Numbered from the stretch's first letter, positions 2 to 6,937 are shown. The stretch is 64,000 nt of DNA from GCF_056746865.1 NZ_CM163382.1; one strand, 5' to 3'. Numbers and translations: made by a program. Notes: a model not told the origin generated them from the letters alone.

Positions 2-1054
2 GTCTGGGCACTGTGCAATGACACGGCCTGTTCTGCAGCCATGCTGCTGGCGTCGGCCTGCTCCCGACGGCTGGTTACCCAGACATCCCGTATCGGCTCC
101 ATTGGCGTGATGATGAGCCATGTCAGCTATGCCGGTCATCTGGCGCAGGCCGGTGTGGATATTACGCTGATTTATGCCGGGGCGCACAAGGTGGATGGCA
201 ATCAGTTTGAAGCGTTGCCGGCAGAGGTTCGCCAGGATATGCAGCAGCGGATTGATGCGGCGCACCGGATGTTTGCCGAAAAAGTGGCGATGTATACCGG
301 GTTGTCTGTGGATGCGGTCACGGGAACAGAGGCCGCCGTTTTTGAAGGTCAGTCCGGCATTGAGGCCGGGCTGGCGGATGAATTAATCAATGCGTCGGAT
401 GCCATCAGTGTGATGGCCACGGCGCTGAACAGTAATGTCAGAGGAGGCACTATGCCGCAATTAACTGCAACGGAAGCCGCCGTGCAGGAGAACCAGCGAG
501 TGATGGGGATCCTGACATGCCAGGAAGCGAAAGGACGTGAACAGCTTGCCACGATGCTGGCAGGGCAACAGGGCATGAGCGTTGAACAGGCCCGGGCGAT
601 TCTGGCCGCGGCGGCACCGCAGCAGCCGGTGGCATCCGCACAGAGTGAAGCCGATCGCATTATGGCGTGTGAAGAAGCGAACGGTCGTGAACAACTGGCA
701 GCAACGCTGGCGGCGATGCCGGAGATGACGGTGGAAAAAGCCCGCCCGATCCTGGCTGCTTCACCGCAGGCGAATGCCGGACCATCACTCCGTGATCAGA
801 TCATGGCACTGGATGAGGCAAAAGGGGCTGAGGCGCAGGCTGAACAGCTGGCTGCCTGCCCGGGAATGACTGTGGAGAGCGCCCGGGCTGTGCTGGCTGC
901 GGGATCAGGTAAGGCAGAACCGGTCTCTGCATCCACAACCGCCCTGTTTGAACATTTCATGGCGAACCATTCACCGGCTGCGGTCCAGGGGGGCGTGTCA
1001 CAGGCGTCAGAAGACGGTGATGCGGACGTGAAAATGCTCATGGCCATGCCATGA
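2..1054 (+). CDS. Prohead protease/scaffold protein (lambda C/Nu3-like, S49 peptidase family), 5' end cut by window edge
   Basis: Reading frame is open from base 2. ClpP/S49-like segment followed by an Ala/Glu-rich scaffold region with three internal repeats, immediately upstream of a D-like gene. Confidence 0.7.
   Translation, partial: VWALCNDTACSAAMLLASACSRRLVTQTSRIGSIGVMMSHVSYAGHLAQAGVDITLIYAGAHKVDGNQFEALPAEVRQDMQQRIDAAHRMFAEKVAMYTGLSVDAVTGTEAAVFEGQSGIEAGLADELINASDAISVMATALNSNVRGGTMPQLTATEAAVQENQRVMGILTCQEAKGREQLATMLAGQQGMSVEQARAILAAAAPQQPVASAQSEADRIMACEEANGREQLAATLAAMPEMTVEKARPILAASPQANAGPSLRDQIMALDEAKGAEAQAEQLAACPGMTVESARAVLAAGSGKAEPVSASTTALFEHFMANHSPAAVQGGVSQASEDGDADVKMLMAMP
503..904 (+). 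repeat. Three tandem imperfect ~35-codon repeats inside the scaffold region
   Basis: Protein-level repeats CQEAKGREQLATMLAGQQGMSVEQARAILAAA / CEEANGREQLAATLAAMPEMTVEKARPILAAS / LDEAKGAEAQAEQLAACPGMTVESARAVLAAG. Confidence 0.5.
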
Positions 1055-1495: not shown

Positions 1496-2416
1496 ATGGG
1501 ATTGTTTACGACCCGCCAGTTACTCGGTTATACCGAACAAAAAGTGAAATTCCGTGCGCTGTTTCTGGAGCTGTTTTTCCGCCGTACGGTGAATTTCCAC
1601 ACCGAAGAGGTGATGCTGGACAAAATTACCGGAAAAACGCCGGTGGCGGCCTATGTCTCCCCAATCGTTGAAGGAAAAGTGCTTCGCCATCGCGGTGGTG
1701 AAACCCGCGTGTTACGTCCGGGCTACGTCAAGCCCAAACACGAATTTAGCACGCCGGAGGGGGAGCGGTATATCCCTTGTGTGAATATTTCCGCGGAGCC
1801 GGAGGCGTATTTTCGTATCGCACCGGAAGACTGGCTGCGGGCAGAGATGCAGGGGGAGATTGTGGCACTGGTCCACAGTCATCCCGGTGGGCTGCCCTGG
1901 CTGAGCGAGGCTGACCGGCGGCTGCAGATAAAAAGCGCACTGCCCTGGTGGCTGGTCTGCCGGGGTGACATTCACAAATTCCGCTGTGTGCCACATCTGA
2001 CGGGACGGCGCTTTGAGCACGGGGTGACGGACTGTTACACGCTGTTCCGGGATGCTTATCATCTGGCGGGGACTGAAATGCCGGATTTTCATCGCGAGGA
2101 TGACTGGTGGCGCAACGGCCAGAACCTGTACCTGGACAACCTGGCGGAAAACGGCTTTTGCCGGGTGTCTCCGTCCTCTGCACAGGCAGGCGATGTGCTG
2201 CTGTGCTGCTTTGGATCATCGGTGCCGAATCATGCCGCCGTTTACTGTGGTGACGGCGAGCTGCTGCACCATATTCCTGAACAACTGAGTAAACGGGAGA
2301 GGTATTCCGAAAAATGGCAACGACGAACGCATTCAGTCTGGCGTCACCGCCACTGGCACGCATCCGCCTTTACGGGGATTTACAACGATTTGGCCGCCGC
2401 CTCAGCCTGTATGTGA
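1496..2416 (+). CDS. Chimeric ORF: first ~84 aa of major capsid protein (lambda E-like) fused in frame to tail assembly protein K (JAMM/MPN plus NlpC/P60)
   Basis: N-terminus FTTRQLLGYTEQKVKF...YVSPIVEGKV...PGYVKPKHEF matches the lambda gpE N-terminus. Downstream are the JAMM motif (E...HSHPGG...SEAD) and NlpC/P60 Cys/His (DCYTLF...NHAAVY) typical of gpK. The 3' end overlaps the I gene as in lambda. Confidence 0.75.
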   Translation: MGLFTTRQLLGYTEQKVKFRALFLELFFRRTVNFHTEEVMLDKITGKTPVAAYVSPIVEGKVLRHRGGETRVLRPGYVKPKHEFSTPEGERYIPCVNISAEPEAYFRIAPEDWLRAEMQGEIVALVHSHPGGLPWLSEADRRLQIKSALPWWLVCRGDIHKFRCVPHLTGRRFEHGVTDCYTLFRDAYHLAGTEMPDFHREDDWWRNGQNLYLDNLAENGFCRVSPSSAQAGDVLLCCFGSSVPNHAAVYCGDGELLHHIPEQLSKRERYSEKWQRRTHSVWRHRHWHASAFTGIYNDLAAASACM

Positions 2417-2994
2417 ACACGGCAGCGGAAGCCATTCGCGCCCTGTCGATGCAGATGCCGGGCTTTCGCCGTCAGATGAACGAAGGCTGGTACCAGATAC
2501 GTATTGCCGGTGATGACACGGCACCGGAGGCGGTGTACGCCCGTCTTCACGAACAGCTGGGTGAGGGAACGGTCATCCATATTGTGCCGCGACTGGCCGG
2601 GGCCGGAAAGGGTGGACTGCAGATTGTGCTGGGGGCGGCAGCCATCGTGGGCTCTTTCTTCACTGCCGGTGCCTCGATGGCGTTATGGGGTACAGCCCTG
2701 AGTGCCGGCGGTTTTTCTGCCACCACGATGCTGTTTTCACTGGGGGCCAGCATGATACTGGGCGGTGTGGCCCAGATGCTGGCCCCGAAGGCAAAAACAC
2801 CGGATTACCGCGCAACGGATAACGGCAGACAGAACACGTACTTTTCCTCGCTGGATAACATGATTGCCCAGGGGAACCCGATGCCGGTGCCTTACGGGGA
2901 AATGCTGGTTGGCTCCCGCCGTATATCCCAGGACATCAGCACCCGTGATGAAGGCGGGGGCGGAAAGGTCGTGGTTATCGGGCGGCAGGGGTAA
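2314..2994 (+). CDS. Tail assembly protein I
   Basis: 226 aa, lambda gpI-like (LYGDLQRFGRR...GWYQIRIAGDD...QNTYFSSLDNM...), overlaps the 3' end of K. Confidence 0.85.
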   Translation: MATTNAFSLASPPLARIRLYGDLQRFGRRLSLYVNTAAEAIRALSMQMPGFRRQMNEGWYQIRIAGDDTAPEAVYARLHEQLGEGTVIHIVPRLAGAGKGGLQIVLGAAAIVGSFFTAGASMALWGTALSAGGFSATTMLFSLGASMILGGVAQMLAPKAKTPDYRATDNGRQNTYFSSLDNMIAQGNPMPVPYGEMLVGSRRISQDISTRDEGGGGKVVVIGRQG

Positions 2995-2997
2995 AAA

Positions 2998-3097
2998 GAA
3001 TAAAAAAATCCCGCAGTGATCGCGGACAGGAACTGCGGGAGAGTTACGAAGATTAAGTGTAAGGAATTATTCTTATGTCACGACAAAAAAATTAACG
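2998..3097 (-). ncRNA. Candidate small RNA (prophage moron) between I and J
   Basis: Minus-strand sigma70-like promoter (TTCACA-16 bp-TATAAT) followed ~100 nt later by a GC stem (CCCGCAGT...ACTGCGGG) and a U-tract. No plausible ORF in the transcribed segment. Confidence 0.3.
3010..3039 (-). terminator. Rho-independent terminator, minus strand
   Basis: 8-bp GC-rich stem CCCGCAGT/ACTGCGGG followed on the minus strand by ATTTTTTTATTCTTTTT. Confidence 0.5.
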
Positions 3098-3104
3098 CAG
3101 AGAA

Positions 3105-3132
3105 ATTATACGCGCCACAGTCAGTTTGTGAA
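3105..3132 (-). promoter_or_regulatory. Predicted sigma70 promoter for the I-J intergenic transcript
   Basis: Minus-strand -35 TTCACA (plus 3127-3132), 16-bp spacer, perfect -10 TATAAT (plus 3105-3110). Confidence 0.35.
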
Positions 3133-3170
3133 AATGTGAAGATATTCAGAATTTTTATTCAGTCATGATA

Positions 3171-3200
3171 CAGGCATCCTCCGGGGTGCCTGTTGTTTTT
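3171..3200 (+). terminator. Rho-independent terminator-like hairpin just upstream of J
   Basis: Stem CAGGCA.../...TGCCTG followed by TTGTTTTTT on the plus strand. Confidence 0.4.
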
Positions 3201-3244
3201 TGGGCATAAACAGATTCAGACATCAGACAGGAGAGGGGGAGCGA

Positions 3245-6200
3245 GTGGGTAAAGGTGGCGGTAAGGCGCACACACCGCGCGAGGCGAAGGATAATCTCAA
3301 ATCCACGCAGATGATGAGTGTGATTGATGCGATTGGTGAGGGACCGATAGAAGGTCCGGTGAAGGGACTGCAGAGTATCCTGGTGAACAAAACCCCGCTG
3401 ACGGACACGGACGGTAATCCCGTGATACACGGTGTGACCGCGGTCTGGCGTGCCGGGGAGCAGGAGCAGACACCACCGGAAGGCTTTGAGTCCTCCGGAG
3501 CTGAAACCGGACTGGGCGTGGAAGTGACGAAGGCAAAACCGGTGACGCGCACCATTACGTCCGCGAACATTGACCGCCTGCGGGTTACCTTCGGGGTGCA
3601 GTCACTGGTGCAGACCACGTCAAAGGGTGACCGTAACCCGACATCCGTCCGCCTGCTGATTCAGTTACAGCGTAACGGTAACTGGGTGACAGAAAAGGAC
3701 GTCACCATTAACGGCAAGACCACCTCACAGTTCCTGGCCTCGGTGATTCTGGATAATCTGCCTCCCCGGCCCTTTAACATCCGGATGGTCAGGGAGACGG
3801 CGGACAGCACCACGGACCAGCTGCAGAATAAGACGCTGTGGTCGTCATACACCGAAATCATCGATGTGAAACAGTGCTACCCGAACACGGCCATTGTGGG
3901 GCTGCAGGTGGATGCGGAGCAGTTCGGCGGCCAGCAGATGACGGTGAACTACCATATCCGCGGTCGCATCATCCAGGTGCCGTCAAACTATGACCCGGAA
4001 AAACGCACGTACAGTGGTATCTGGGACGGCAGCCTGAAACCGGCATACAGCAACAACCCGGCCTGGTGTCTGTGGGACATGCTGACTCACCCGCGCTACG
4101 GCATGGGAAAACGTCTGGGGGCGGCGGATGTGGACAAGTGGGCGCTGTATGCCATCGGGCAGTACTGCGACCAGACGGTCCCGGATGGTTTCGGGGGGAC
4201 CGAGCCGCGGATGACCTTTAATGCGTACCTGGCACAACAGCGTAAGGCGTGGGACGTTCTCAGTGATTTCTGCTCTGCGATGCGCTGTATGCCGGTATGG
4301 AACGGCCAGACGCTGACGTTCGTTCAGGACCGTCCGTCGGATGTGGTGTGGCCGTACACCAACAGCGATGTGGTGGTGGATGATAACGGCGTGGGTTTCC
4401 GCTACAGCTTCAGTGCCCTGAAGGACCGGCACACGGCAGTGGAGGTGAATTACACCGACCCGCAGAACGGCTGGCAGACCTCCACGGAACTGGTGGAAGA
4501 CCCGGAAGCCATACTGCGCTACGGACGCAACCTGCTGAAGATGGACGCGTTCGGCTGTACCAGCCGCGGTCAGGCCCACCGTGCCGGGCTGTGGGTGATA
4601 AAGACCGAACTGCTGGAAACGCAGACGGTGGATTTCACGCTCGGGTCACAGGGGCTGCGTCACACACCCGGTGACATCATTGAAATCTGTGATAACGACT
4701 ATGCCGGGACCATGACCGGCGGACGTGTCCTGTCCATCGATGCCGCCAGCCGTACCCTGACGCTGGACCGGGAGGTGACACTGCCGGAGACCGGCACGGC
4801 CACTGTTAATCTGATTAACGGCAGCGGTAAGCCGGCGAGCGTGGCCATCACCGCACACCCCGCGCCTGACCGGATACAGGTCAGCACCCTGCCGGATGGT
4901 GTGGAGACATACGGTGTGTGGGGACTCTCCCTGCCGTCACTGCGTCGTCGCCTGTTCTGCTGTGTCTCCATCCGGGAAAACACGGACGGCACGTTCGCCA
5001 TCACGGCGGTGCAGCACGTACCGGAAAAAGAAGCCATTGTGGATAACGGGGCCAGCTTTGAGCCGCAGTCAGGCAGCCTGAACAGCGTTATCCCACCGGC
5101 AGTGCAGCACCTGACGGTGGAGGTGAGTGCAGCTGACGGTCAGTATCTGGCACAGGCGAAATGGGACACGCCGCGGGTGGTGAAGGGTGTGCGCTTCAGT
5201 CTGCGTCTGACCAGCGGAAGCGGAGAAGACAGCCGTCTGGTGAGCACCGCCATCACCGCAGACACGGAGCACCGTTTCAGTGGTCTGCCGCTGGGGGAAT
5301 ACACCCTGACGGTGCGGGCCATTAACAGCTACGGCCAGCAGGGCGAACCTGCGACCACCACCTTCCGGATTAACGCGCCTGCAAAACCCGCCACCATTGA
5401 GCTGACGCCGGGGTATTTTCAGATAACGGCGGTCCCGCGTCTTGCGGTGTATGACCCGACGGTACAGTTTGAATTCTGGTTCTCAGAAAAACGCATCACG
5501 AACACGGCACAGGTGGAAAAATCTGCCCGTTATCTGGGGACCGGCAGTCAGTGGACTGTCCAGGGGAGCCGGATTAAGCCGGGGACGGATTTCTGGTTTT
5601 ACGTGCGAAGCGTCAACCTGGTGGGAAAATCTGCTTTTGTGGAAGCCAGCGGGCAGCCCAGCAATGATGGTGAAGGGTATCTGGAAATTTTCCGGGGGCT
5701 GATAGATGAGACGCTTCTGGGCCAGGCACTGAAAGAGCGCATTGATGCTTCAGCGCTGCGTACGGAGGTCACGCAACTGGAAGAAGACATCCGTCAGCGG
5801 ATGGACACGGATATCGCAGAAGTGACCCGGAAAATCGGGGAGGCGGAAAACAGCCTCACGCAGCTGGTTGCGAAAAAGAATGAGGACCAGACACTGGCCA
5901 TCGCGCAGGTGAGCCAGAAAGTGGACCGGGTGAGCAGTGAAATCTCACAGACTGTCAGCCAGGGGCAGTCAGAAAATGCCCGACAGATAGCACAGGTCCG
6001 CCAGTACGTGGATAAAAAAGGGAGTGAAATTACCTCGACCACGGATAAAAAACTGGGTGACCAGGCCGTGACCATACAGCAAATCCAGCGGGTTCAGTCA
6101 GACACGCGCAATGAGCTGAATGCCATGTATATGCTGAAGGTGCAGAAAACAAAAAACGGTATTCCCTATGTGGCCGGGATTGGTGCGGGGATTGAGGATG

Positions 6201-6937
6201 TTGATGGTCAGACGCTGAGCAGTATTCTGCTGCAGGCTGACCGTATCGCGATGATTACCCCGGAGAACGGCAACACCACGCCGCTGTTTGTGGCGCAGGG
6301 GAATCAGCTGTTCATGAACGACGTGTTCCTGAAGCGACTGTTTGCGGTGAGCATCACGTCATCCGGCAATCCTCCGACGTTTTCCCTGACGCCGGATGGC
6401 AGGCTGACAGCCCGCAATGCGGATATCAGTGGAGCCATCACGGCGAATACCGGCACGCTCAATAATGTCACCATTAACGAGAACTGTGTCATCAGAGGGA
6501 AACTGTCTGCAAACCAGATTGAAGGCGATCTCGTTAAAACAGTGGGTAAGGCTTTCCCTCGTGACTCCCGTGCACCGAAGCGGTGGCCATCAGGAACCAT
6601 TACCGTCAGGGTTTATGACGATCAGCCGTTTAACCGGCAGATTGTTATTCCGGCGGTGGCTTTCAGCGGTGCCAGACATGAGCGGGAGAACAGCGATACT
6701 TATTCGTCATGCCGCCTGATAGTGAAGAAAAACGGTGCTGAAATTTATAACCGTACCGCGCTGGATAATACGCTGATTTACAGTGGTGTTATTGATATGC
6801 CAGCTGGTCGCGGCCACATGACGCTGGAGTTTTCTGTATCAGCATGGTGGGTAAATGGCTGGTATCCCACAGCAAGTATCAGCGATTTGCTGGTTGTTGT
6901 GATGAAGAAAGCCACTGCAGGCATCACGATTAGCTGA
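3245..6937 (+). CDS. Host specificity / central tail fiber protein J
   Basis: About 1230 aa, collinear with lambda gpJ ([21 protein letters not shown]...). Start is probably GTG at 3245 after a GGAG-rich SD; the TTG at 3200 in the ORF track is unlikely. Confidence 0.9.

Follow-up and report, generated by a model that had tools for sequence, protein, structure and literature searches.

The spacer between tail genes I and J of the lambdoid prophage analysed here probably carries an autonomous sRNA gene of the PasB/EcOnc22-24 family, a moron which occupies the minus strand at 3002–3158 (all positions refer to the window, the whole 64,000-nt stretch of NZ_CM163382.1, GCF_056746865.1, that was analysed). 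Judged from its sequence, the RNA adds a new, unannotated and very common member to a family that is known but functionally uncharacterised. The I and J boundaries were taken from the PGAP annotation of the 100%-identical genome NZ_CP023142.1, which puts the end of I at 2994 and the start of J at 3245. The resulting spacer of 250 nt, compared with the 60-nt I–J gap of lambda, agrees with the original prediction that a non-coding insert parts the two genes here, unlike in lambda. The gene is oriented against the late operon and its terminator and U7 abut the stop codon of I, which ends 7 nt from the last U of the predicted sRNA (3002). The elements of the region are:

2413–2994, plus strand: tail assembly protein gene I (PGAP annotation; ORF 2314–2994), the neighbour on the 3′ side of the sRNA terminator
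3002–3098, minus strand: predicted sRNA transcript of ~97 nt, from G3098 (7 nt after the −10 box) to the last U of U7
3002–3039, minus strand: intrinsic terminator, arms CCCGCAG (3039–3033) and CUGCGGG (3016–3010) enclosing a variable loop, then A and U7 (3008–3002)
3048–3056, minus strand: UUAAUCUUC block, nearly invariant and predicted to be single-stranded (mean unpaired probability ~0.7–0.8)
3066–3061, minus strand: C/U-rich, anti-Shine-Dalgarno-like UUCCUU, directly after the ARN run
3074–3067, minus strand: A-rich ARN run AAGAAUAA, within the 3061–3074 element
3105–3110, minus strand: −10 hexamer TATAAT (family forms nATAAT, TATCAT and GATAAA; the A at the second position is invariant)
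3127–3132, minus strand: −35 hexamer TTCACA of the window copy, 5/6 matches to TTGACA, 16-nt spacer to the −10 hexamer
3132–3158, minus strand: promoter-upstream block AAUAAAAAUUCUGAAUAUCUUCACAUUU, invariant, at about −36 to −59 (mean pairwise identity 0.94)
3150–3135, minus strand: palindrome TCTGA-N6-TCACA in the upstream block, in plus-strand reading TGTGAAGATATTCAGA = TGTGA-N6-TCAGA
3170–3203, plus strand: hairpin with a 10-bp stem (3170–3193), then the T-run TGTTTTTTGG, ~50 nt before the start of J
3245–6937, plus strand: J, tail tip/host specificity gene (PGAP annotation, ORF), the right-hand neighbour

The original prediction regarded the identity of the RNA as unknown, whereas this RNA type has already been described under two names, PasB and EcOnc22-24. 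PasB (E2348CN_0006) is encoded by prophage PP6 of strain E2348/69 (Pearl Mizrahi et al., 2021, PMC8550237; Zhu, Shabalina & Storz, 2026, 10.64898/2026.05.13.724894) and is one of five "pathogenicity-associated" sRNAs obtained by RIL-seq in EPEC O127:H6 E2348/69 (PMC8550237). Table S6 of the latter study places it at 1466343→1466261 on the minus strand of NC_011601.1 (83 nt) and lists the probe AATCCCGCAGTGATCGCGGAGCT; the RNA gave a Northern band of ~83 nt, took part in 37 RIL-seq interactions, was RNA2 in ~99–100% of its chimeras and depended strongly on Hfq, with log2FC values of −6.8 and −2.4 in Δhfq (PMC8550237). These coordinates fall between the tail assembly gene (ending at 1466255) and gpJ (starting at 1466496) of E2348/69, in antisense orientation. 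The spacers of the window and E2348/69 align throughout: the promoters agree at 35 of 40 positions, the 3′ terminator arm and U7 do so completely, and of the 23 positions of the PasB Northern probe 20 match window 3008–3027. The 83-nt PasB maps to window 3083–3002, with its 5′-end (a coverage/Northern estimate) at 3083 and its 3′-end at 3002, and the two RNAs agree in 57 of 85 MAFFT columns (~67%), or at 0.81 identity by global alignment. PasB thus resembles the window RNA in its location in the I–J spacer, its strand, the spacing between its terminator and the I stop, the terminator arms and U7, and the two share the layout of U-run, A-rich run, anti-SD-like block, putative seed and terminator, the UUAAUCUUC-type block being present in PasB as GAUCUUC. 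They differ, however, in the A-rich and C/U-rich blocks (AAGAAUAAUUCCUU against AACAAAAACAACUCCUU), and the terminator loop of the window copy is 5 nt longer.

In EHEC O157:H7 Sakai, homologous Hfq-CRAC peaks were reported as EcOnc22 (Sp15, the Stx1 prophage), EcOnc23 (Sp14) and EcOnc24 (Sp11), and EcOnc22 gave a Northern band of ~85 nt that was destabilised in Δhfq (Tree et al., 2014, PMC4104026). All three map inside I–J spacers when placed on the current Sakai record, with the tail genes on the other strand. As the CRAC peaks were given in coordinates of an older assembly, which have to be shifted by ~+110–128 nt to fall on the RNA, this placement relies on the EcOnc22/23/24 probe, the reverse complement of which maps to the body and 5′ terminator arm (23 nt exact, 3 edits overall); the units hit by the probe are identical 91-nt PasB-like ones in Sp15, Sp14 and Sp11. 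EcOnc22 is 0.78 identical to the window RNA by global alignment. The EcOnc units have the upstream block, the conserved −10 hexamer, the UUAAUCUUC block and the CCCGCAG/CUGCGGG terminator with U7 in common with the window, but differ from it in a poor −35 hexamer (TCCGGC), a −10 hexamer AATAAT and the body variant AAAAAUAACUCCAU. In the window, the placement is that of the family in each respect (I–J spacer, antisense to the late operon, terminator abutting the I stop), and the view of the locus as a self-contained, moron-like minus-strand sRNA gene with its own promoter and terminator is borne out by the homologous PasB and EcOnc22-24 loci, which have been shown to be such genes. Table S6 of PMC8550237 gives no EHEC homologue for PasB, and a statement that PasB and EcOnc22-24 form one family was not found in the published descriptions of either; a review from 2021 still gave the targets of EcOnc22-24 as unknown.

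The originally expected RNA length of ~100 nt corresponds to the 97 nt predicted from the promoter, but the validated homologues run at ~83–85 nt, and for the homologues as well the measured length is shorter than the 91–98 nt predicted from their promoters, so that the true 5′-end may differ or the RNA may be processed. According to the fold prediction, the RNA consists of a mostly open body and the terminator; relative to shuffled sequences, its z-score lies between about −2.1 and −2.5. The GC stem and U-tract that had been proposed as a minus-strand terminator (CCCGCAG…CTGCGGG at 3039–3010, then A and U7) were found as described; the 7-bp GC-rich stem never varies among 17 aligned variants and, together with U7, is likely the site bound by the proximal face of Hfq. 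The UUAAUCUUC block is a candidate seed, and its position agrees with the putative PasB seed that Zhu et al. (10.64898/2026.05.13.724894) located directly 5′ of the terminator. Further upstream, the type of the ARN and anti-SD motifs is kept, with altered sequence, in most of the 17 variants: the counterparts are AACAAAAACAAC-CUCCUU in PasB and AAUAAAAACAAA-CUCCCU in the Stx-phage variants, and two loci (L067 and L080) have a weaker TCTCT or TATCT instead of the anti-SD block. RNAalifold analysis of the 17 variants returned the 7-bp terminator stem as the sole consensus helix, with no covarying pairs. The compensatory stem changes hoped for in the original prediction were therefore not visible, and since the only consensus helix is invariant, covariation is uninformative for any structure.

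The absence of an ORF between promoter and terminator also held: the RNA strand is without AUG and has stop codons in all three frames, and no ORF on either strand of the sRNA locus is conserved across the variants. The hypothesis of a small protein was rejected on these grounds. A 50-aa plus-strand ORF at 3016–3168 and the 32-aa "hypothetical protein" annotated on the plus strand across the sRNA gene of phage PhiR12_4 are not conserved and were set aside as coding sequences. A 22-codon minus-strand ORF at 3155–3223, upstream of the sRNA promoter and overlapping the plus-strand hairpin, lacks a Shine-Dalgarno sequence and is probably fortuitous; some variants contain it as well, while in others it is missing or its frame is shifted. 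In NZ_CP023142.1 the locus tags of I and J are CA696_RS15260 and CA696_RS15250, and RS15255 is missing exactly at the I–J spacer, which suggests that a feature was formerly called there and has since been withdrawn.

To describe the conservation pattern, loci were fetched from IMG/VR solely via the I protein (n = 80). The sRNA unit was present in all 80 of them, in 25 distinct 150-nt variants, and with the Stx1, Stx2 and EHEC variants added the set amounted to ~30 variants overall. Fixed across these are the terminator arms, the UUAAUCUUC block, a −10 hexamer and the upstream palindrome, while the remainder drifts. The terminator arms, identical in the 17 aligned variants, have a mean pairwise identity of 0.98–1.00 against 0.57 for the loop, and the UUAAUCUUC block reaches 0.98 between flanking linkers of 0.47–0.56. 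In the promoter, the value is 0.81 for the −10 hexamer, 0.60 for the spacer (17 nt long by the alignment, but 16 in locus L157) and 0.59 for the position of the window −35 hexamer. The body retains its motif types, namely a 5′ U-run, an ARN/AAN run, in most variants a C/U-rich anti-SD-like hexamer, and the invariant block. The identities show selection on the −10 hexamer, the upstream block, UUAAUCUUC and the terminator arms, with drift elsewhere.

The near-consensus minus-strand σ70 promoter of the original prediction is present in the window (TTCACA at 3132–3127, 16 nt, TATAAT at 3110–3105; 11/12 consensus matches). Its maintenance in related prophages, however, was found in part: the terminator, the −10 hexamer and the upstream block are kept, but the −35 hexamer is not. 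TTCACA is restricted to the window-type and PasB-type variants, while the Stx-phage and EHEC variants have TTCTGT, TCCGGC or TTTGCA at this place. Given this variability, the −35 hexamer has to be regarded as a feature of the window-type and PasB-type alleles rather than a conserved promoter element of the wider family, where the −10 hexamer and the upstream palindrome are what is conserved. An invariant TTCACA located further upstream was considered as an alternative −35 box and dismissed because it lies 24 nt from the −10 hexamer. The palindrome at 3135–3150, directly 5′ of the −35 position, is invariant in the family, and the upstream block containing it is a candidate activator or UP-element site. 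TGTGAAGATATTCAGA is CRP-like, with 1 mismatch to TGTGA-N6-TCACA, and only 2 CRP-like matches occur in the 64 kb. Counted from the first base of the −10 hexamer, its centre is 32.5 nt further upstream, at about −44.5 and so 3 bp off the −41.5 of class II CRP geometry; for this reason, CRP control of the sRNA promoter is only a hypothesis. Published data, in which PasB goes up in a condition where the CRP-repressed Spf goes down, are circumstantial for CRP.

At about window 3158 the conserved module comes to an end, and at least four unrelated right-hand junctions were found beyond it, the upstream block being kept with four. These junctions and the tandem arrangements detected are:

Junction type: plus-strand hairpin and J, as in the window
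Junction type: segment with a bidirectional terminator, the commonest in IMG/VR
Junction types: two further ones, one of them with a minus-strand ORF
L162 (NZ_CP129269.1) 200–630 and L163 (NZ_CP035498.1) 120–580, minus strand: tandem units

In L003-type loci (at least 35 IMG/VR contigs and many ExPEC-type genomes), homology to the window stops at ~3158 and a segment of ~200 nt with a bidirectional terminator lies between the sRNA gene and J. Four IMG/VR loci (L058, L059, L064, and L070) have lost the promoter block and kept the sRNA body and terminator; ~100–130 nt after the I stop, different DNA takes over (…CTCAGAGAGGGAGGATGTGCC…), and a hairpin and a minus-strand ORF come next. These could be relics, or their RNAs could be made as the 3′UTR of the upstream gene. 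Two STEC genomes contain two sRNA units in tandem within the I–J spacer, each with its own TCTGAAWWTCTTCACATTT upstream block, −10 hexamer and GCGUUAC start. The J-proximal unit has another body (with a CCUCCUU anti-SD and without AAUCUUC) and another stem (CUCCCGU…ACGGGAG with U7); this "type 2" body was detected in 21 of 5426 complete E. coli genomes, mostly STEC. The breakpoints at the edge of the promoter block and the separate block of each tandem unit indicate that the unit behaves as a gene cassette. From these comparisons we infer that evolution of the family preserves the promoter cassette, the putative seed block and the terminator and lets the remaining body diversify.

The hairpin and T-run noticed on the plus strand by the original prediction exist, but they belong to the J-side module and not to the sRNA unit, since they are present only where J follows directly (mean pairwise identity 0.90). 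One stem position varies as U·G, C-G and U-A. The structure resembles an intrinsic terminator, which would be passed by Q-modified polymerase. Loci with other junction types have other hairpins at the same place (AAAACCCCGGTATC…GATACCGGGGTTT in L003, GGTAAGGGGCCCGCCCCTTACC in L058), and a structured element before J seems to recur across junction types. Just 5′ of the J ribosome-binding site, the heptamer CAGACAT is repeated on the plus strand (3208–3228); its copy number differs between phages, with ~2 copies in the window and 4 in L075 and L154.

With the whole spacer as query, matches were obtained in 1815 of 5426 complete E. coli genomes, with as many as 11 sites in a single genome, as well as in 149 phage records, mostly Stx-converting. 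The window-type RNA (≥90% identity) occurs in 1253/5426 and the PasB-type in 956/5426 of these genomes, and among the E. coli matches listed no annotated feature lay beneath the sRNA match. The taxonomic range was searched with a structural DNA pattern in one genome per species; this pattern proved too generic, as 66 of the 71 matches were unrelated terminators, and outside E. coli the true homologues were confined to E. albertii and three short contigs of implausible taxa. The latter, assigned to a "Clostridiales" MAG (L100), a "Collinsella sp." MAG (L125) and "Parendozoicomonas haliclonae" (L145, a 460-nt contig), carry spacer copies of 76–99% identity and most likely reflect mis-binning or contamination in public assemblies. 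The survey published in 2026 searched with the 83-nt RNA of E2348/69 as query at word size 28 and >75% coverage and reported only PasB variants differing by a few nucleotides (10.64898/2026.05.13.724894). The longest exact word shared by the window RNA and this query is 25 nt; hence, no hit is obtained at word size 28, and at word size 11 the coverage is 30%. The window-type variant, commoner than the PasB-type, was thus very probably missed by that survey.

By analogy with its homologues, the window RNA is most likely an Hfq-dependent, lysogen-expressed, trans-acting sRNA. As for PasB and the EcOnc RNAs, a transcript of ~83–97 nt would be made in the lysogen, and it would be bound and stabilised by Hfq via the terminator/U-tail and the A-rich ARN run. 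It may act in trans by imperfect pairing of its C/U-rich anti-SD-like and UUAAUCUUC blocks with the 5′UTR or early coding regions of host and accessory mRNAs. Duplex energies were calculated for the 144 translation-initiation regions in the window and the J leader; shuffled RNAs typically reach a stronger best value (−27.8 ± 2.7) than the real RNA does (−23.0), so no target lead was obtained within the window.

Other known RNAs were compared. AgvB and AsxR (RF02702/RF02703) are, like the window RNA, encoded by prophages of pathogenic E. coli and bind Hfq (predicted for the window RNA), and they likewise combine a conserved 3′ terminator module (~42 nt), a variable 5′ targeting region and a fixed moron position in lambdoid prophages. 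However, they form a convergent sRNA pair of 51–60 nt downstream of PR′, next to stx or moron genes, whereas the window unit lies between I and J, has a predicted length of 83–97 nt and matches them neither in sequence nor in structure. AgvB and AsxR act as sponges of core sRNAs. Identity with AgvB/AsxR was rejected, because the PR′ moron site is where these RNAs are located and because the region is without a match among the Rfam models: a cmscan of 2800–3450 against Rfam at E ≤ 1 yielded four sub-threshold unrelated hits (MicX, PK-repZ and two snoRNAs), all at chance level, MicX for instance with 18 bits against a gathering score of 75.

Lambda OOP is a short RNA with its own promoter and intrinsic terminator, transcribed against the phage operon and overlapping the 3′ region of the upstream gene; it belongs to the early region and acts in cis on the cII mRNA via RNase III. 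The window RNA is alike in architecture but has no sequence relationship with OOP, which to our knowledge is not known as an Hfq-dependent multi-target sRNA. An OOP-like role, in which the RNA would act mainly in cis as an antisense of the late transcript and, through RNase III cleavage or transcriptional interference, uncouple or lower J expression after induction, would draw on its perfect complementarity to ~97 nt of the I–J intercistronic mRNA and on the position of the gene, convergent with and embedded in the late operon and fixed beside the I stop in all loci examined; such a strict position despite mosaic flanks is what would be expected if the genomic context mattered. We nevertheless consider this unlikely as the main role. 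The J ribosome-binding site is located downstream, more than 140 nt from the end of the RNA, which makes direct masking impossible; PasB has 37 Hfq-dependent interactions with core and accessory transcripts, as RNA2 like the classical trans-acting sRNAs; and it is abundant in non-induced cultures, where the late operon is silent. The cis and trans roles are compatible and could coexist.

That inactive copies exist is indicated by the four loci without the promoter block, and the window copy might accordingly be a decaying or silent relic of a real family, not expressed or functionless. This is quite improbable, as the window copy has the best promoter of the family (11/12) along with an intact upstream block, terminator and U7, and the retention of relatives at least 90% identical in 1253/5426 genomes argues against neutral decay. 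In a motif scan of 2.5 kb, neither the number of promoter-like sites (3 vs. 1.3 ± 1.1 expected) nor that of terminator-like sites (5 vs. 2.1 ± 1.3 expected) was significant, thus the case for a real unit rests on homology and conservation. A non-functional recombination linker joining tail-gene modules, with fortuitous motifs, would be compatible with these counts, which are not significantly above the shuffled expectation, and with the nature of the I–J junction as a mosaic hotspot. Such a reading of the spacer is hardly credible, however, given that the homologues are transcribed, Hfq-bound and Hfq-stabilised in two pathotypes (published Northern, RIL-seq and CRAC data) and that conservation is not uniform but patterned as promoter, sRNA and terminator.

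Going beyond the assignment of the window RNA as a trans-acting member of the PasB/EcOnc22-24 family, we tentatively put forward a broader picture, which we rate as possible rather than probable: the I–J sRNAs, so far described piecemeal as PasB and as EcOnc22-24, would represent one diversifying cassette family. Its commonest member would be the window-type, found in 23% of complete E. coli genomes (ExPEC lineages among them), and this type would have its own targeting specificity distinct from that of PasB; the palindrome, through CRP or another host regulator, would govern expression, and cassettes with alternative bodies and terminators could replace one another or be stacked in tandem. 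If true, expression via the palindrome and a host regulator would tie the prophage RNA to host physiology.

In pathogenic E. coli, Hfq sRNAs encoded by prophages rewire the regulation of the host, AgvB and AsxR being the standard examples. The I–J sRNA locus is not a new kind of system. What is added is modest: PasB is unified with EcOnc22-24, the invariant parts are defined, and the cassette and tandem behaviour and the survey gap are described. An RNA that has been named twice before occurs far more widely, and varies far more, than the literature states, and its −10 hexamer, upstream palindrome, putative UUAAUCUUC seed and terminator provide handles for the search for its regulator and targets. 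The sRNA gene is also present in Stx1- and Stx2-converting phages, so any effect it may have on host physiology or on expression of the tail gene J would bear on the biology of STEC.
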